Positions 4,151 to 52,687 of a stretch of DNA of 64,000 nucleotides are shown here, in pieces; the stretch's first letter is position 1, and every line of letters begins with the position of its first letter. Source of the DNA: an uncultured Alphaproteobacteria bacterium (GTDB lineage Bacteria; Pseudomonadota; Alphaproteobacteria; Rhizobiales; Beijerinckiaceae). The position numbers and the translations under genes are program-made. The stretch is taken from NCBI GenBank assembly GCA_963824475.1, contig CAWGPR010000003.1:10737-74736 (forward strand). The letters are read 5' to 3'. The notes beneath the pieces are model-generated. The model did no database searches, was not told the DNA's origin, and was given only the letters and a program-made list of their open reading frames with translations.

Positions 4151-5899
4151 ATGGCCGCTTCCATCAGCAACCGCCTCACAATTGCGCTCGCGCAAATCCC
4201 AGCGATCGTTGGCGACATCGCGGGCAACCGCGACCGTCTGCGCAAAGCGCGAGCGGAGGCCGCCGCCTTCGGCGCCGACATCGTGATGGCGCCGGAACTC
4301 TACCTCTCCGGCTATCCGCCCGAGGATCTGGTGCTGAAGCCTGCCTTTCAGGAAGCCTGCCGCGCGGCTTGCGAGGAGCTGGCGCGCTTGACCGCCGACG
4401 GCGGGCCGGCGGCGCTGGTCGGCCTGCCCTGGGTCGGCGAGGACGGCAAGCTGCACAACGCCATGGCGCTCCTCGACGGCGGGAGGATCGAGGCGGTGCG
4501 GTTCAAGTTCGACCTGCCCAATTATGGCGTGTTCGACGAGAAGCGCGTCTTTGCGCCGGGGCCGTCGCCGGGACCGATCGTCTTTCGCGGCGCGCGCGTC
4601 GGCGTTCCGATCTGCGAGGATATCTGGGGGCCCGACCCGGTCGAGTGCATCCTCGAAACCGGCGGCGAAATTCTGCTGGTCGGCAACGCGTCGCCTTATG
4701 AGCGCGACAAGCTCGCCATCCGCCAGAACGTCGCGGTGGCGCGCGTCGTCGAGAGCGGCCTGCCGCTCATCTATCTCAACATGGTCGGCGGTCAGGACGA
4801 GCTCGTGTTCGACGGCGGCTCGTTCGCGCTCAACGCCGACCGCACCTTAAGCGCGCAATTGCCTGCCTTCCGCCCAATGGTGGCGCGCACCGTGTGGGAG
4901 CGCGGCGAGGGCGGCTGGCGCTGCGTCGAAGGCCCGCTCGAAGTGGTCGAGGAGGGCGACGAAGCGGACTATGCGGCCTGCGTGATGGGTCTGCGCGACT
5001 ATGTCCAGAACAACCGCTTTCCGGGGGTGGTGCTTGGCCTCTCCGGCGGCGTCGATTCGGCTTTGTGCGCCGCGATGGCGGTTGACGCGCTGGGGGCTGA
5101 GCGCGTGCACGCGGTGATGCTGCCCTATCGCTTCACCTCGAACGAATCGCTCTCGGATGCGGCCCAATGCGCCAAAGCGCTTGGCGTCCGCTACGATATC
5201 GTGCCGATCGCCGAACCGGTCGAGGGCGTGGAGCATGCGCTCGCGCGGATGTTCGCCGGCAAGGCGCGCGACATCACCGAAGAGAACATCCAGAGCCGCG
5301 CCCGGGGCCTGATCCTGATGGCGATCTCCAACAAGACCGGCGCGATGGTGGTGACGACCGGCAACAAGTCGGAAATGTCGGTCGGCTACGCCACGCTCTA
5401 CGGCGACATGAACGGCGGCTTCAACCCGATCAAGGACCTTTACAAGATGGAGGTCTTTCGCCTCGCCGCGCTGCGCAACCGCTGGAAGCCGATAGGAGCA
5501 CTCGGGCCGGATGGCGAGGTGATTCCTCAAAACATCATCGTCAAGCCGCCGAGCGCGGAATTGCGCGAGAACCAGAGGGATGAGGATTCGCTGCCGCCCT
5601 ATCCGGTGCTCGACGGCATTCTGCACGGACTGGTCGAAAAAGAGATGCGCATCGCCGACATTGTGGCTGAGGGTTACGATTCGGAGACGGTGCGCAAGGT
5701 CGAGCGTCTGCTTTATCTCGCGGAATACAAGCGCCGCCAGTCGGCACCGGGGGTCAAGGTGGGGCCGAAGAATTTCGGCCGCGACCGGCGCTATCCGATC
5801 GTCAACCGCTTCCGCGACCTGGGCCTTAAGGCGCAAAAGCCGGATGCGTCGATTGCGCCGCTGAAGTCGGCGGGGACGAGCGAACGGTTCGAGGAGTAG
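4151..5899 (+). CDS. nadE: Glutamine-dependent NAD+ synthetase (CN-hydrolase domain plus NAD synthetase domain)
   Basis: N-terminal nitrilase-like domain (ICEDIW). C-terminal LGLSGGVDSA P-loop and TGNKSEMSVGYATLYGDM motifs. Confidence 0.95.
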   Translation: MAASISNRLTIALAQIPAIVGDIAGNRDRLRKARAEAAAFGADIVMAPELYLSGYPPEDLVLKPAFQEACRAACEELARLTADGGPAALVGLPWVGEDGKLHNAMALLDGGRIEAVRFKFDLPNYGVFDEKRVFAPGPSPGPIVFRGARVGVPICEDIWGPDPVECILETGGEILLVGNASPYERDKLAIRQNVAVARVVESGLPLIYLNMVGGQDELVFDGGSFALNADRTLSAQLPAFRPMVARTVWERGEGGWRCVEGPLEVVEEGDEADYAACVMGLRDYVQNNRFPGVVLGLSGGVDSALCAAMAVDALGAERVHAVMLPYRFTSNESLSDAAQCAKALGVRYDIVPIAEPVEGVEHALARMFAGKARDITEENIQSRARGLILMAISNKTGAMVVTTGNKSEMSVGYATLYGDMNGGFNPIKDLYKMEVFRLAALRNRWKPIGALGPDGEVIPQNIIVKPPSAELRENQRDEDSLPPYPVLDGILHGLVEKEMRIADIVAEGYDSETVRKVERLLYLAEYKRRQSAPGVKVGPKNFGRDRRYPIVNRFRDLGLKAQKPDASIAPLKSAGTSERFEE

Positions 5900-6053
5900 A
5901 GGGTGGGTGGCGCCTCGCGAGCCGCTGCATTTTTTGCTCTTATAGCGTCAGCTGTTTGGACAGAGTTCGACCTAGGGCTGTGTTCGCGCCTCGCGCCGGA
6001 CTGCTTCAGCCACTTTCGGACACCAGGCAACTCATTTCGGGAGGGATTCAGAC

Positions 6054-7486
6054 ATGCTGGGAAATATGGCTCGCCTCGCTTATGCCGGGCTGGTCGGCGC
6101 CGCCTTCGCCGGCGGCGGGTCTTCCAGAGCGGCAGCCGAGCCGGCGAGCGAACAGGATGCGCATGCGATCGGCGTCGAGGCCTATCTCTACTTCTACCCT
6201 CTCGTCACCATGGACCTGACCCGCAAGCAGCTGACGAACGTCGCCAAGCCGGAGGGCTTCGAGGCGCCGATGAACGCCTTCGCCAGCGTTCCCGCTTTCT
6301 TACGGCGGACATGAAAGTCGTCGTCCGGCCAAACTTCGACACGCTCTATTCGAGCGCCTGGCTCGACTTGACCAAGGAGCCGGTGATCGTCTCGGTCCCC
6401 GACACGCATGGGCGCTATTACCTGCTGCCGATGCTGGACATGTGGACTGACGTGTTCGTCTCGCCTGGCTGGCGCACGACGGGAACGGCGGCCGGCGACT
6501 TCGCCGTGACGCCTCCCGGCTTTACCGGTTCGCTCCCGGCGGGCGTCATTCGCATCGACGCGCCCACGCCCTATGTCTGGATCATCGGCCGCACCAAGAC
6601 GGATGGGCCGTCCGACTACGACGCCGTGCACGCGATCCAGGCCGGCTTCAAAATCACGCCGCTCTCGCAATGGGGCAAGGCTGCCGAACCTGTCGTCGGC
6701 CATGTCGATCCCGATATCGACATGAAGACGCCGCCGAAGGTCGCGGTCGATGCGATGCCGGCGGGCAAGTTCTTCGCCTACGCCGCCGAAATCCTCAAAT
6801 CGCAGCCGCCGCATATCACCGACCAGCCGATCCTCGCCCGCATGCGGCGAATCGGGATCGAGCGCAGCAAGAGTTTCGACATCGACAAGGTTGATCCGGC
6901 GATCAAATCCGCGCTTAAGAGCGCGCCGGAAGACGCCCAGAAGCTGATGGCGTGGAAGGTGAACAGCCTTGCCCGCGTCGTCAACGGCTGGTCGATGAAC
7001 ACCGACACGATGGGCGTTTACGGCAATTATTACCTCAAACGCGCGATCATCACCCAGTTGGGTCTCGGCGCGAACCTGCCGGAGGACGCGATCTATCCGA
7101 TCAACCTCGCGGACGAGTCAGGCAAGCCGCTGGATGGCGCGAGCGCCTATACTTTGCACTTCGAAAGGGGCGCCGCGCCGCCGGCCAACGCCTTCTGGTC
7201 GATCACGCTCTATGACGCTCAGGGCTACCAGGTGGCGAACAGCCTCAACCGGTTCGCTCTCAGCAGCTGGATGCCGTTCAAATATGATCCGGACGGCTCC
7301 CTCGACCTCTATGTCCAGAACGCGAGCCCTGGCGCCGACAGGCAAGCAAACTGGTTGCCGGCGCCAAAGGGACCGTTCAACCTCACGATGCGGATCTATG
7401 CGCCAAAGAGCGAGGCGCTGACCGGAAAGTGGAGCCCGCCGCCGGTCACGAAAGAGAGCCAGCCAACCTTGGCGCCGGCGCAATAG
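6054..7486 (+). pseudogene. DUF1254/DUF1214 two-domain secreted protein; frame broken at about 6297-6302
   Basis: Frame 3 gives a signal peptide plus AHAIGVEAYLYFYPLVTMDLTRKQ...PMNAFASVPAF. Frame 2 continues LTADMKVVVRPNFDTLYSSAWLDL...RYYLLPMLDMWTDVF. A 1-nt loss in the CTTTCTT run explains the break. Confidence 0.8.
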
Positions 7487-7622
7487 CTTGTCCTCACAAG
7501 CGAGGGCGCCGCACGCGGGGCGGATCGTCGCCGCCCCCGCGCGGTCCTTCGCGCCTCCCAGCTATCCTGGGACCTGATATAAGCGACATCGCCAGGGTCG
7601 AAGCCCCCACGGAGGCATTTCC

Positions 7623-8066
7623 ATGCAAAACGTCGCGTTCAAGGCCGGAGATACGATCATCTGCGAGGGCGACGAGGGCGATACGGCGTTCTTCATCGTC
7701 AGCGGAGCGGTCGACGTCGCAGTCGGCCGCGGCGCCAATGCGAGAGTTGTCGGCAGGCTTGAGATCGGCGACGTATTCGGAGAAATGTGCCTGATCGAGC
7801 CGGGGCCGCGATCCGCGACCGTCACCGCGGCGTGCGATACGGAATGCCTCGCGGCCTCGTATCAAGAGTTCATCGCCGCAATCGAGGAGAACCCGGAACG
7901 CGCCGTCGGGTTCATGAAAACGCTGGTCCGCCGTCTCCGCAAAATGAACGAATTGCTCGAGAGCGCGAGCCCGGAGCGGCGCGGGCTACGCGCCATGCTC
8001 CTCGATTGCCAGCCGTCCGGAGGCTCCCCCGAAGCCGCCGCCCTATCCTGGACGATGCTGTGGTGA
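7623..8066 (+). CDS. Standalone cyclic-nucleotide-binding (cNMP/CAP-effector) domain protein, no HTH
   Basis: FKAGDTIICEGDEGDTAFFIVSG...GDVFGEMCLIEPGPRSATVTA shows the beta-barrel and phosphate-binding cassette (FGE...RSA). Only 147 aa. GGAGG lies upstream. Confidence 0.8.
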   Translation: MQNVAFKAGDTIICEGDEGDTAFFIVSGAVDVAVGRGANARVVGRLEIGDVFGEMCLIEPGPRSATVTAACDTECLAASYQEFIAAIEENPERAVGFMKTLVRRLRKMNELLESASPERRGLRAMLLDCQPSGGSPEAAALSWTMLW

Positions 8067-8165
8067 GTCGCCGGCCGCCCAAGCGTCGCCCCTTCCGACG
8101 ATCGGTCTTAACTGTCGTCTATTGTTCACAATCCAGCGTTAATCGAAGGGGAGCAGGGGGAGCCC

Positions 8166-8411
8166 ATGACCGATGTCTCGGCCGATCTTCAGCGGGAGCT
8201 GGACCAATTGCAGGCGGCCTACAAGGCGGCCGTGGACAATTGGGTGGCTGCGATCCGCGAGGAGGAGGCGCTCGCCTCCGGCAACCATAACGTCGCGGAG
8301 CTCGACAAATGGGAGGGCGCCCATTACCGCGAGCATAAGCTGCACAAGGAAGTCGATTTCCGCAAGCGCCTCTATGAAGACGCGCTGCGCCGCGAATTCT
8401 TCGGCTTCTGA
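8166..8411 (+). CDS. Small (81 aa) helical hypothetical protein
   Basis: Clean ORF behind a GGGGGAG RBS-like stretch. Charged coiled-coil-like composition. Confidence 0.5.
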   Translation: MTDVSADLQRELDQLQAAYKAAVDNWVAAIREEEALASGNHNVAELDKWEGAHYREHKLHKEVDFRKRLYEDALRREFFGF

Positions 8412-8460
8412 TCTTCCGAGCTCCTGGCGCGACTGATCGAGCCGCGGCTTCGATCTTGTC

Positions 8461-8640
8461 GAACGCCGAATTCAACCGATCTTGACAGGGCGTCGCAGTT
8501 CACGCCAAGTCGAACCGAAGGACTTCGGGGGCCGAGGCGCAGGACCGGCGCGACCGGGCCGTCCGCAGGGCAGCCTGGTGGAGCGTCCGACTGTCGGATG
8601 AACAAAATCGCCGCCGATCCCACTCAACCTTATCGCAGCC
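8461..8640 (+). repeat. Copy 1 of a duplicated leader plus 5-prime CDS segment of the PycTM-like genes (contains TTGACA at 8482-8487)
   Basis: Near-identical to 9119-9301: ...TTCAACCGATCTTGACAGGGCGTCGCAGTTCACGCCAAGTCGA...GGAGCGTCCGACTGTCGGATGAACAAAATCGCC. Confidence 0.85.
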
Positions 8641-9059
8641 TGATCGCCGGTTACACCGACGCGATCCGCCAGAGCGATTTCAAGGCCAATATCGCGTTTC
8701 TGTTCGTCGCCTTCATGATGGGTTCGGTTCTCTGGAACTACACGTCCTTTCCGAGTTACCTGTCGGTCCAGCTCGTGCTGGTGCCTTTTCTGATCGTCTA
8801 TTTCTTTTTGTTCATGGTGCTTATTCCGCGCTATCCCAAGCGCGGGGCCAAGAGCTTCCTCGTTGCACGCAATCTGACGCCTGCGGATTTCGAGTCCGTC
8901 GCCCAGACTGCAGACGACCTCGAACAGTTAAAGCTCACTTGCGCAGTGCTGTCCGACATTCTTTGGTGGAAGACGCAGTGCATCCGCGTCAGCTTCCTCG
9001 TGTCGATCGTTTGCGTGTTCCTGACCATGGTTCTGCTTCTCTACGTCGCATTCAGATGA
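8598..9059 (+). CDS. PycTM/DUF5706-like three-TM membrane protein, paralogue 1
   Basis: N-terminal IRQSDFKANIAFLFVAFMMG ([AS]DxKA motif running into TM1). TM2 is LVLVPFLIVYFFLFMVLIP, followed by PRYPKRG. A roughly 55 aa soluble loop with LKLTCAVLSDILWWK, then a C-terminal TM. Confidence 0.7.
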   Translation: MNKIAADPTQPYRSLIAGYTDAIRQSDFKANIAFLFVAFMMGSVLWNYTSFPSYLSVQLVLVPFLIVYFFLFMVLIPRYPKRGAKSFLVARNLTPADFESVAQTADDLEQLKLTCAVLSDILWWKTQCIRVSFLVSIVCVFLTMVLLLYVAFR

Positions 9060-9118
9060 TTCAGGCGCCCGCGGCCGGGGTCGCTCGGCGCGTTTGAACC
9101 GGCCGCTCCGGCCGCGTC

Positions 9119-9301
9119 GAAAGCCGAAATTCAACCGATCTTGACAGGGCGTCGCAGTTCACGCCAAGTCGAGCCGAAGGAGTTCGGGGGGCCGAGGCCG
9201 AGGACCGGCGCGGATGGGCCCGTCCGCCGGCCGGCCTTGTGGAGCGTCCGACTGTCGGATGAACAAAATCGCCGTCGATCCCGCTCAACCTTATCGCCGC
9301 C
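9119..9301 (+). repeat. Copy 2 of the duplicated leader plus 5-prime CDS segment (TTGACA at 9141-9146)
   Basis: See copy 1. Only a few substitutions and indels by eye, while the downstream CDS is clearly more diverged. Confidence 0.85.
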
Positions 9302-9732
9302 TGATCGCCGCTTATACCGACGCGATCCGCCAGAGCGATTTCAAGGCCAATATCGCGATCCTGATGGTCGCCTTCATGATGGGCCCGGTTCTCGGCAATC
9401 ACTCGCGCTTTCCGAGCTATCTGCCCATCCCGTTCGTCATGCTGCCGTTCCTGATCGTGTACATCTGTCTGTTGGCGGTGCTGATCCCGCGCTATCCCAA
9501 GCGCGGCTCCAAGAATTTCGTCGTCTCGGCCAACGCCAAACCCGCCGATTTCGCCAATGTCGTCGAGGCCGAGGACGAGCTTGAGCAGCTGAAACTGCGT
9601 TGCTCGGTCCTGTCTGAACTGCTGTGGTGGAAGACCCTCTACATCAGGATCAGCTTTTTTGTCGCGATGGCGAGCATTGTGGCATGCATGGTCTTGCTTC
9701 TTTATATCTGGTACGGAGGAAGGGGCCGATAG
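9259..9732 (+). CDS. PycTM/DUF5706-like three-TM membrane protein, paralogue 2
   Basis: MNKIAVDPAQPYRRLIAAYTDAIRQSDFKANIA... Roughly two-thirds identical to paralogue 1 by eye, with the same topology. Confidence 0.7.
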   Translation: MNKIAVDPAQPYRRLIAAYTDAIRQSDFKANIAILMVAFMMGPVLGNHSRFPSYLPIPFVMLPFLIVYICLLAVLIPRYPKRGSKNFVVSANAKPADFANVVEAEDELEQLKLRCSVLSELLWWKTLYIRISFFVAMASIVACMVLLLYIWYGGRGR

Positions 9733-9817
9733 ACATGATCCACTCGGTTCGATGGCGCAACGCATTACCGGCGGCTGCCGCCCGAGGCGCCTCCTCGCTT
9801 GCCTCGCAGGGCGGCTG

Positions 9818-10273
9818 ATGACCAGGGACCGCGACGCCCAATTGCGCAATCTGATCGCCGGCTACGGCGATTCGATCCGGCTCAGCGACATCAAGGCGAA
9901 TATCGCCGTGCTGTTCGTCGCGATCATGATGGGCACCGTTCTCCAGTTTCGCGCTCAATACCCCTGGTATCTGAGCGTGCCGGTGATTTTGGCGCCGTTC
10001 ATCGTCATGTTCTTAAATCTGCTCGTCTCCGTCTATCCCCGGTTTCCCCGCTCGGGACGCAAGCGGTTCCCGCTCTGGCGCGGTGCGAGTCCGGCGGATT
10101 TCGAGTTCATCGCCGATCCGGTGCTCGAAGCGGAGGAACTGCCGGTTCGATGCGCGCTCTTGTCGCGAACTCTCTATTGGAAGAACGTCACCCTCCAGGC
10201 CGCCTATCTGATCGCGATGGCGACGCTGTTCGCTGGCGGGGTGCTCTTGTTCGTGACCTGGCTGCGCCACTGA
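9818..10273 (+). CDS. PycTM/DUF5706-like three-TM membrane protein, paralogue 3 (most diverged)
   Basis: LRNLIAGYGDSIRLSDIKANIAVLFVAIMMG...YPRFPRSGRKRF...RCALLSRTLYWK keeps the same motifs and topology. The ATG at 9818 was chosen by alignment to paralogues 1 and 2. Confidence 0.65.
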   Translation: MTRDRDAQLRNLIAGYGDSIRLSDIKANIAVLFVAIMMGTVLQFRAQYPWYLSVPVILAPFIVMFLNLLVSVYPRFPRSGRKRFPLWRGASPADFEFIADPVLEAEELPVRCALLSRTLYWKNVTLQAAYLIAMATLFAGGVLLFVTWLRH

Positions 10274-10463
10274 CGCGCGCGTTAGGACAAGCGCCGAGCT
10301 GGCGGCGAGGACGCCGCGTTCGGTTCCGAGGTTTGACGGCACTGGTCATCCAACTTATGAAAGAGGCGCGCCCCGACCACCAGGGCATAAAAAATCAGAT
10401 ATCAAAGCTGGATTGACTGAGCCGATGCTGCGGCCGGCTTGGCTTGAACATGGGAGAGAAACG

Positions 10464-11726
10464 ATGCTCACGATCAAGGCGGCGCTTGCCGGAACCCTTC
10501 TCTGCGCGGCGGCGACGAGTGTGGCGTGGGCCGAACCCAAGACAAACCTGCTCAGTCAATGGTCCGAGGGCTCCGATGCGGCGGCGATCGCCAAGCTCGG
10601 CGAGATGTTCACCGCCGCCGGCGGCAAATGGGAACAGACTTCGATCGCGGGCCATACCGCCAACACGCTCGCCAAGCTGCGGGCCGACGTCGTCGCCGGC
10701 AACGCGCCGCCGGCGGTGCAGCTCAAGGGTCCGGAAATCGCCGAGTGGAACGAGACCGGCATGACCGCCAACCTCGACGACCTCGCCAACAAGGAGGGCT
10801 GGGACAAAGTCGTCGCGCCCGAGCTCTTGCCAGTGATGAAGCCGACCGGTCACTGGGTCGCCGCGCCGATGAACATCCATCGCATCAACTGGATCTGGGG
10901 CTCGACCAAGGCGATGGAGCAGGCGGGAATCAAGGAGTTGCCGAAGACCTGGGCCGAATTCAACGCCGACTGCGACAAGGCGGTCGCGGCCCATCTCATC
11001 TGCCTCGCCCATTTCAGTCAGGACTGGACCGACGCGACGACGTTCGAGGTGGTCGTCTACGGCCAGAACATCGACTTGTTCCGCAAGGCCTTCGTCGAGG
11101 GCGACACCAAGGCGATGCGCTCGCCCGACATGGTCAAGGCGTTCCAGCAGATGCGCCTGATGGTGTCGAAATACATGGATCCCGGCATCGCCGGCCGCGA
11201 CTACAACACCGCGACCAGCATGATCGCCAAGGGGCAGGCGGCGTTCATGATCATGGGCGACTGGCAGATCGGCATCTTCACCGCGGCGGGACTGAAGACG
11301 CCCCAGGACTACCAGTGCGGGCAGGCGCCGACCGACTGGGGCAAGCCCGGCTTCATCCTCAATTCGGACTCGGTCGTCTTCTTCAAGCAGAAGGACCCTG
11401 ACTACGTCGCCGGCCAGACGCTGCTTGCGCATCTCATCATGTCGCCGAAGTTCCAGACTGTGTTCAATGAGGCCAAGGGCTCGATTCCCGCCCGGCTCGA
11501 CATCGATCTCAAGGATTTCAACCCCTGTCAGCAGCAGTCGCAGAAGGCCTTGCAGGCCTCGATCGCCGACGGCACGCTGGTGCGCTCGATGGCTCACAAC
11601 ATGACCATCCTGCAGAAGTATCGCGGCGCGATCCTCGACACCATCACCGCCTTCGTCAACAACCCGAAAACGACCCCGGAAGAAGCCGCCAACGCCATGG
11701 CGGACGCCGTCGACGCGCAAAAGTAA
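10464..11726 (+). CDS. Carbohydrate ABC transporter substrate-binding protein (family 1)
   Basis: Signal peptide MLTIKAALAGTLLCAAATSVAWA and GGGAGAG RBS. Typical SBP_bac_1 length and composition (MIMGDWQ). Confidence 0.85.
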   Translation: MLTIKAALAGTLLCAAATSVAWAEPKTNLLSQWSEGSDAAAIAKLGEMFTAAGGKWEQTSIAGHTANTLAKLRADVVAGNAPPAVQLKGPEIAEWNETGMTANLDDLANKEGWDKVVAPELLPVMKPTGHWVAAPMNIHRINWIWGSTKAMEQAGIKELPKTWAEFNADCDKAVAAHLICLAHFSQDWTDATTFEVVVYGQNIDLFRKAFVEGDTKAMRSPDMVKAFQQMRLMVSKYMDPGIAGRDYNTATSMIAKGQAAFMIMGDWQIGIFTAAGLKTPQDYQCGQAPTDWGKPGFILNSDSVVFFKQKDPDYVAGQTLLAHLIMSPKFQTVFNEAKGSIPARLDIDLKDFNPCQQQSQKALQASIADGTLVRSMAHNMTILQKYRGAILDTITAFVNNPKTTPEEAANAMADAVDAQK

Positions 11727-48142: not shown

Positions 48143-48526
48143 TCATCGCGATCCCTTGGGGATATAGACGACGCCGGGCAGCTTCGCGAAATGCGCCTCG
48201 CAGGTGAGCAGATCGGCGTCCATGTCGACGGCCGTTGCATAGATGATCGCATCGGCCATCGCGAGCGCATGATCGCGGGCGATTTCAGCCGCTTCAAGCG
48301 CAAGCCGTGTGGTTAAGGCAGTCACGACGCATTGAGTGGAAAATGCAATCGTGTCGTCGGCCGCGTCTTCCGAGACCTCCCGCGTCAGGCAACGGGCCAG
48401 TTCATATTGCACGATCGTCGGGACGATCCAGCCTTCCTTCGGCGGGATCTCCCTACCAATGGCGCGGCCGACCGCGCTGTCAGCCAGCCATTCGAGCCAT
48501 GCCGAGGTGTCGACGACGCGCATCAA
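48143..48526 (-). CDS. vapC: PIN-domain toxin VapC
   Basis: RVVDTSAWLEWL start with the acidic D, ...DAIIYATAV...LLTCEAHF. About 125 aa. Start is probably the ATG at 48523, overlapping the vapB stop. Confidence 0.8.
   Translation of the reverse strand: MMRVVDTSAWLEWLADSAVGRAIGREIPPKEGWIVPTIVQYELARCLTREVSEDAADDTIAFSTQCVVTALTTRLALEAAEIARDHALAMADAIIYATAVDMDADLLTCEAHFAKLPGVVYIPKGSR

Positions 48527-51406: not shown

Positions 51407-52687
<1,281 letters not shown>

Follow-up and report, generated by a model that had tools for sequence, protein, structure and literature searches.

What is the relationship between a gene for a bare cyclic-nucleotide-binding domain (CNBD) and the three tandem genes for small membrane proteins that follow it, at a locus where no cyclase is seen? 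This question is raised by a 64-kb stretch of DNA from an uncultured alphaproteobacterium (contig CAWGPR010000003.1; the whole stretch is called the window here). A first-pass annotation, made from the sequence of the window, had read the CNBD protein as the possible sensor and the three membrane proteins (TM1, TM2 and TM3, for transmembrane) as the possible effectors of an undescribed split system of the Pycsar kind. Our comparison with related loci points to a different answer. The explanation that we favor, and regard as reasonably probable, is that TM2 and TM3 are the resident members of a lineage-specific, multi-copy cassette consisting of one A-type and one B-type gene, that TM1 is an A-type gene gained in addition, that the CNBD gene and a small helical gene next to it are only neighbors, and that the A and B proteins may form a hetero-oligomeric gated ring.

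All five genes are located on the forward strand. The CNBD gene (7623-8066) is an open reading frame (ORF) for 147 amino acids (aa), and is followed by an ORF for an 81-aa helical protein (8166-8411), TM1 (8598-9059, 153 aa), TM2 (9259-9732, 157 aa, within an ORF at 9214-9732) and TM3 (9818-10273, 151 aa, within an ORF at 9659-10273). TM1 and TM2 are of the A type and TM3 is of the B type, all three being PycTM-like proteins with three TM helices. The order of one helical ORF and three same-strand paralogues of about 150 aa had been read correctly in the first-pass annotation. TM1 is 64% identical to TM2 and 43% identical to TM3, which bears out the description of a triplicated and diverging module, and each of the three proteins scores 195-224 bits against a hidden Markov model (HMM) of the family. 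Beyond TM1-TM3 and the 7623-8066 gene, the window holds no further family member or CNBD. The motifs that had been quoted as shared are found in the TM proteins, except that the first Y of 'Y..LIA' is L in TM3. Hydropathy reveals three hydrophobic segments in each protein (approximately 28-46, 51-80 and 126-153), and the AlphaFold2 model of TM1 (mean predicted local distance difference test score 78) contains long helices at 10-46, 57-75 and 106-152 and a poorly defined loop between the second and third TM helices.

The only Pfam family matched by all three TM proteins is PF18967 (PycTM, formerly DUF5706), with scores of 21.0, 20.3 and 16.0 bits compared with a gathering cut-off of 27.2 bits (E 0.016 for TM3). 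In precomputed Pfam tags, TM1-TM3 are all labeled PF18967.6 without a mark, which stands for E<=1e-5. The PADLOC PycTM model PDLC02364 matches TM1 (E 5.6e-9) and TM2 (E 1e-9) over nearly their full length, and TM3 in a partial alignment (E 5e-3). Of the 21 family members, 11 yield a PF18967 match with E<=0.01, and the lowest E value is 1.8e-10. Based on these profile similarities, we accept that the TM proteins and the PycTM family are homologous at the level of the superfamily, in agreement with the resemblance that the first-pass annotation had pointed out. Of the two profile matches that the first-pass annotation had put forward as a check, the CNBD one (PF00027) lies above its cut-off and the PF18967 one below it. 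NCBIfam has no match for the TM proteins or for the 81-aa protein, and insignificant matches to SPC25, TMEM208 and PspB were taken as compositional noise. A protein profile search of 1.8 billion representative proteins returned no more than 153 relatives with E<=0.001, and many of these are fragments; the TM subfamily is small. Neither a tblastn search of 72,556 plasmids with TM1 nor a scan of viral contigs with the family alignment found any relative.

The known members of this superfamily provide both precedents and differences. The PycTM effector is a stand-alone protein with three TM helices belonging to the pJV1-SpdB3 family, and the CNBD is carried by PycTIR and PucTIR (bioRxiv 10.64898/2026.08.12.744502); family descriptions are also available in PMC11224242. 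With their 154-165 positions, the PycTM models of PADLOC have no space for a PF00027 domain. In the first-pass annotation, the described PycTM effector had been taken to be a fusion of CNBD and TM module, and this is not the case. Because PF18967-type PycTM has no fused CNBD, the notion of a "split" rests on a mistaken premise.

The proteins studied here resemble PycTM in length (~150-165 aa), in having three TM helices, in an N-terminal cytosolic helix that runs into the first of them and in the cytosolic region between the second and third, and the A type is similar to the PycTM HMM over nearly its full length (PDLC02364 E 1e-9). They conform to the general architecture of the family (three TM helices, a helical cytosolic region, ~150-170 aa and a single domain), and an effector of the PycTM/PycTIR type is in this sense present at the locus. 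On the other hand, they score below the Pfam gathering cut-off, have no adjacent PycC and no defence island, and occur as A+B heteropairs in multiple copies and in core-gene contexts. PucTM, the cyclic GMP-dependent effector of Pucsar, is a hexameric cylinder in which TM helix 2 lines a channel of ~15 A, as determined by cryo-electron microscopy (bioRxiv 10.64898/2026.08.12.744502). Its authors place it in the same pJV1-SpdB3-type family, and it is a precedent for an oligomeric ring; however, PucTM is a homo-hexamer encoded by a single gene beside the cyclase gene pucC, whereas two paralogous subunits and no cyclase are found here. SpdB3 of the Streptomyces plasmids pJV1 and pSVH1, with which we compared our proteins by description only, is the membrane protein that gave the family its name and acts without a cyclase, and its induction is highly toxic to Escherichia coli (PMC4447253). 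It belongs to a plasmid-borne spreading operon of Actinobacteria, in contrast to the chromosomal genes studied here, which are not surrounded by conjugation genes and have no relatives on plasmids.

To place TM1-TM3 among their relatives, we used one genome per GTDB species, which yielded 124 related stretches, 80 of which were analyzed. The scan was based on exact peptide patterns of close relatives and reaches the Roseiarcus-like clade only. With the family HMM, 87 loci could be classified, comprising 73 adjacent pairs, 7 singles and 7 triples. The A gene is consistently upstream and the B gene downstream, at a spacing of 25-100 nt, and the A and B genes form two deeply separated clades in a neighbor-joining tree. 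We conclude that A and B are paralogues that diverged long ago within the PycTM/pJV1-SpdB3 family of three-TM proteins, and that the conserved unit is a self-contained cassette made up of a promoter-like motif, an A-type gene and a B-type gene. All loci come from Roseiarcus-like soil Hyphomicrobiales or from metagenome-assembled genomes (MAGs) labeled 'uncultured Alphaproteobacteria'. Two or three loci per genome are common, as judged by contig prefixes (for example, L024, L034 and L059 share the prefix CAVYDG).

The contexts of the cassette are unrelated housekeeping genes, such as nadE and a sugar ATP-binding cassette (ABC) transporter, ComEC with L33 and glutamate dehydrogenase (in the order ComEC-pair-rpmG-gdh), or PCMT (PCMT-pair), and many contexts are unique. 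No conserved sequence that could represent the end of a mobile element was found 3' of the B gene or 5' of the promoter motif, and a mobile-element interpretation of the cassette was rejected. More distant relatives tagged as PF18967 (~25% identity) are single genes, likewise in housekeeping contexts and with no cyclase. A third type, the 158-aa single-copy PycTM-like protein P0440, is encoded ~6 kb upstream of ComEC in the Roseiarcus-like genome represented by L088 (7001-7477), so these genomes hold family members beyond the A/B pairs. Directly upstream of the cassette in L050, L054, L072 and the nadE-site loci L061-L085, there is a gene of ~440 aa that resembles major facilitator superfamily (MFS) transporters (cluster 5, typed by eye). 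Its presence in two context classes may reflect an older three-gene arrangement or a coincidence of paralogues.

Where does the third TM gene come from? Triples are confined to the window and its closest relatives (L001 and L008-L012). In the tree, TM2 and TM3 cluster with the A and B genes of syntenic nadE-site loci in other species, and TM1 clusters with A genes that are normally found at other loci (e.g., downstream of ComEC) and not with nadE-site A genes. A repeat search showed that the promoter-like region and the 5' two-thirds of TM1 (8469-8855, + strand) recur directly as the promoter-like region and 5' part of TM2 (9128-9516, + strand). The two copies are 97% identical in their upstream part (8469-8531 and 9128-9190) and 84% identical in the part that follows (8556-8855 and 9217-9516), and within the genes the repeat extends over the first ~260 coding nt. 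Synonymous divergence (dS) between TM1 and TM2 is 0.36 in the first 88 codons and ~4.5, which is saturated, in the remainder. The limitation of the repeat to the 5' part and the contrast in dS imply that TM1 is an extra A-type gene whose promoter and 5' part were homogenized with those of TM2. A plausible course of events is that the nadE-site cassette (TM2 and TM3) gained TM1 from the A subclade of another locus, and that its promoter and first ~88 codons were subsequently made alike by gene conversion. The ratio of nonsynonymous to synonymous divergence (dN/dS) among six species is 0.10-0.26 for TM1, 0.12-0.31 for TM2 and 0.09-0.24 for TM3; all three genes are under purifying selection.

The cassette also has its own candidate control elements. 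The 25-nt promoter-like motif CTTGACAG-N10-TTCACGC is located at 8481-8505 (+ strand), 117 nt upstream of the TM1 start, and a second copy at 9140-9164 (+ strand), 119 nt upstream of the TM2 start. These are the only two matches in 64 kb, compared with 0.01 expected. In 55 of 88 loci, which belong to several context classes, the motif precedes the A gene by 102-132 nt, and it is essentially absent elsewhere in 1.3 Mb of related-locus DNA. Outside the ComEC-type loci, it was observed upstream of every A-type gene. Similarity between paralogous loci starts 2-3 bases before the motif and stops at the B stop codon, the motif forming the left edge of the duplicated cassette. The motif includes a good -35 element (TTGACA) and no clear -10 element, and a scan of 7400-10500 for the sigma-70 consensus found no canonical promoter. 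Judging from this conservation, the motif would be a shared promoter or operator, and the invariant TTCACGC may be the site of a regulator. A common element of this kind suggests that the cassettes are co-regulated and are transcribed independently of the CNBD gene.

A second element overlaps the start of the A gene. It consists of a Shine-Dalgarno (SD)-like GGAG and the palindrome CGTCCGAC-T-GTCGGATG, the last three bases of which are the start codon of TM1 (8580-8600, + strand); the corresponding GGAG and start-codon palindrome of TM2 are at 9241-9261 (+ strand). The palindrome is conserved at A starts across loci, and the only SD-like GGAG lies 14 nt before the ATG of the A gene, which is unusually far. 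The palindrome might serve as an operator; alternatively, it might fold into a hairpin and thereby place SD and AUG close to each other. A riboswitch-type leader was considered and found no support: an Rfam scan of 7300-10500 returned nothing at E<=1, and RNAalifold revealed no covariation-supported structure in two groups of 16 leaders. One of the groups retains a 6-bp start-codon hairpin whose pairs are invariant, and the other has no consensus.

How closely is the CNBD gene tied to this cassette? The domain itself is beyond doubt. The 147-aa protein matches PF00027 at E 3.4e-20 (72.3 bits, cut-off 27.5) over residues 5-90, and in an alignment its cassette FGEM...PRSATV coincides with the phosphate-binding cassette of the PKG and PKA domains (FGE...RSAT), which confirms the earlier description of a protein that is nothing but a CNBD with an intact cassette. 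It shares the beta-barrel and FGE...PRSAT with the CNB domains of PycTIR/PucTIR, PKA/PKG and CRP, and differs from them in having no TIR, helix-turn-helix, kinase or TM output and no other domain at all. A PADLOC match of this protein to 'PycC' (E 2.8e-7) covers model positions 37-151 of 374; as the query is essentially nothing but a CNBD, this match was not counted as evidence of a cyclase. Using phmmer and jackhmmer, we found an orthologue in 28 of the 87 loci, every one of them at the nadE site; none was detected in the other 59, for most of which about 8 kb of sequence to either side was covered. Where it is present, the CNBD gene keeps its place next to nadE, while the interval between it and the first TM gene ranges from 0.16 to 5.5 kb. 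This interval can contain an MFS transporter gene or a block of LysR, aldo-keto-reductase-like and SDR-like genes, and part of the inserted genes lie on the opposite strand. In L009, L066 and L087, the A gene belongs to the nadE-site clade, yet no CNBD gene is found within 8 kb. Thus, neither a fusion nor a tight conserved linkage that would indicate a CNBD-coupled effector was observed. The CNBD gene tracks nadE and not the TM cassette, and is probably a conserved neighbor of nadE that does not form part of the cassette. The first-pass annotation had itself named co-occurrence across genomes as a refuting test, and nothing beyond nadE-site synteny emerged from it.

The 81-aa helical protein has no significant match in Pfam or NCBIfam. 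Its orthologues (E 1e-25 to 1e-47) are restricted to nadE-site loci, where the gene is found either just upstream of the A gene or beside the CNBD gene, in which case an MFS gene intervenes. It is probably a conserved neighbor at the nadE site and not a component of the cassette.

The absence of a local cyclase had been noted from the start, and it held in every search that we made. No PF00211 match is present in the window (Pfam tags for 1-19 kb and Pfam scans of ORFs for 18-64 kb), and jackhmmer, seeded with a class III cyclase of the CHASE2 type, found nothing in the six-frame translation of the entire window. No cyclase gene adjoins any of the 87 loci, the nearest case being one in L051 at a distance of 6 kb; a PycC-type cyclase beside the effector, as in Pycsar, is therefore lacking. 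A single contig presents a different picture for a distant member of the family: in L089 (6284-9503), the gene for P0186 (167 aa) immediately follows a FecR-domain gene and is oriented convergently to a gene for a CHASE2+Guanylate_cyc sensory cyclase. P0186 is the only family member with an immediate cyclase neighbor among all loci, and a metagenome scan with P0186 found no further examples. A defence-island or mobile context was not observed either, the neighbors being nadE, the sugar ABC transporter, ComEC, rpmG and gdh-type genes. This core-like genomic behavior argues against a classical defence system.

In the explanation that we favor, the cassette proteins are probably orphan membrane proteins of the PycTM/SpdB3 family that work as hetero-oligomers, by analogy with the relatives described above. 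In each A or B subunit, the N terminus would face the inside and the chain would span the membrane with three TM helices, while the N-terminal helix and the loop between the second and third TM helices would form the cytosolic part. The hexameric PucTM and the toxic SpdB3 suggest that A and B probably come together in the inner membrane as a hetero-oligomeric ring, which could work as a gated pore or channel. Its gating signal would not be locally encoded, and might be a cyclic nucleotide made by a distant cyclase or some other signal; a cyclase encoded in trans is the most natural candidate for the trigger. Expression of the cassette would be set by whatever recognizes the upstream motif and the start-codon palindrome.

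Several observations weigh against this explanation. The PF18967 scores of the three proteins lie below the cut-off, and the B type has only a weak match to PycTM models. No solved structure matches by sequence or by fold: the TM1 model had no match in PDB or BFVD at E<=0.001, and a sequence-profile search of PDB with the family gave only an insignificant match to LMBD1. The idea of a hetero-oligomer or pore is drawn solely from the strict adjacency of A and B and from analogy. Seven loci hold an A gene without B, and the B partner is thus not obligatory. The A-only loci include L044, L048, L053 and L056 (A gene at ~8001-8462), of which L044, L053 and L056 group together as a single clade of A genes; they imply that either B can be lost or A can act alone. 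In addition, one narrow clade supplies all loci, and conservation of neighborhood and of function are not fully separable within it. Finally, the CNBD gene has been kept near the cassette in 28 species-level genomes, which could exceed mere synteny.

The alternative that survives best, although we consider it unlikely, is that A and B are orphan effectors activated in trans, i.e., lethal or growth-arresting pores gated by a cyclic nucleotide from a defence or sensory class III cyclase located elsewhere in the genome. The homology to PycTM models is in line with it, as is the position of P0186 between the FecR gene and the convergent cyclase gene, and Alphaproteobacteria often encode many class III cyclases. 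However, apart from the distant one in L051, no cyclase is linked to the 87 loci, the family has no relatives on viral contigs or plasmids, and the core-gene neighborhoods, cross-species synteny and strong purifying selection are unlike those of typical defence genes with their fast turnover.

That the cassette encodes small housekeeping membrane proteins, which share only ancestry and fold with PycTM and perhaps serve as subunits of a stress- or envelope-related complex, with no nucleotide gating and no toxicity, is a further unlikely explanation that still has to be weighed. It would fit the multiple copies, the synteny, the housekeeping neighbors and the dN/dS values of 0.1-0.3. The common promoter element also suggests a regulon, and the sub-threshold PF18967 scores would be expected. 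On the other hand, nothing points positively to a particular role, and neither NCBIfam nor Pfam offers an alternative family.

Quite unlikely, in our opinion, is a combination of these possibilities, in which A and B would be domesticated relatives of PycTM that form hetero-oligomeric ligand-gated channels for core physiology, belong to a shared regulon and are gated by distant class III cyclases, the nadE-linked CNBD protein perhaps serving as a soluble co-sensor in trans. The arrangement of FecR, three-TM and CHASE2-cyclase genes in L089 is a hint of such cyclase-gated domesticated channels.

The split Pycsar-like module of the first-pass annotation, in which the CNBD protein would sense a cyclic nucleotide and, perhaps via the helical protein, activate three membrane-disrupting TM effectors, now seems very unlikely. 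Its appeal came from the intact phosphate-binding cassette, the position of the CNBD gene on the same strand 0.5 kb upstream of the PycTM-like genes and the recurrence of this neighborhood at 28 loci. In PADLOC, moreover, the CNBD protein matches best to the CNBD portions of PycTIR effectors, although a similarity of this kind is generic for CNBDs. Against these points stand the 59 loci with no CNBD gene in their flanks even by jackhmmer, the variable spacing with unrelated and opposite-strand insertions, the loss of linkage in three loci with a nadE-site-clade A gene, the promoter-like element owned by the TM genes, and the fact that the described PF18967 effectors need no separate CNBD. The other suggestion of that annotation, a decoy or immunity array in which a toxin-like pore would be formed by one paralogue and the remaining ones would neutralize it or titrate a phage factor, is barely credible: tandem paralogues do diverge and one sublineage has an extra A copy, but A and B do not differ in their degree of conservation or in their predicted architecture, the pair is of ancient origin and has remained stable instead of diversifying rapidly, and no mobile-element or defence-island context supports it.

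To our knowledge, PycTM-type effectors are known solely as single genes accompanied by a cyclase in phage-defence operons. The clade studied here keeps proteins of this kind as conserved two-subunit cassettes, several per genome, in core contexts; the cassettes share a regulatory element and are not accompanied by a cyclase. If they are active pores, the family would be either triggered in trans or recruited to a role other than defence, and the natural A/B heteropairs would offer a handle on subunit interfaces. At present, the main value of the analysis is that an over-reading has been corrected, the CNBD gene being a neighbor and not the sensor of a split system, and interest in the family is modest until activity has been demonstrated.

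The wider surroundings can be described briefly. The window has ~65% G+C, and the nearest named relatives of its proteins are from MAGs of Roseiarcus sp. (Roseiarcaceae, Hyphomicrobiales). Upstream of the CNBD gene are nadE (4151-5899, + strand) and a DUF1254/DUF1214 gene (5903-7486, + strand), and a sugar ABC transporter operon begins downstream of TM3 at 10413 (+ strand). The DUF1254/DUF1214 gene was found solely in the window, L001, L002 and L078, and the other nadE-containing nadE-site loci that were compared have no DUF1254 gene between nadE and the CNBD gene. L001, a soil-metagenome contig from ENA, is 98.9% identical to the window across the first 19 kb, with 23 gap openings; its DAHP synthase is broken into two, and the CNBD gene is uncalled in L001 at 8886-9567 (window 7483-8164). 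These features look like indel errors of assembly and not biology.

At the far end of the window, Pfam scans identified ruvCAB, mnmE-mnmG-rsmG and parA, which marks the window as core chromosome. A PIN-domain (VapC-like) toxin gene is located between ruvB and ruvA (48143-48526, - strand; PF01850 E 1.6e-14), and the short gap upstream of it could house an antitoxin gene. In the origin-proximal region near mnmE-mnmG-rsmG-parA, there is also a gene for a CcrM-like N6/N4 DNA methyltransferase with a C-terminal RAMA domain (51464-52687, + strand).

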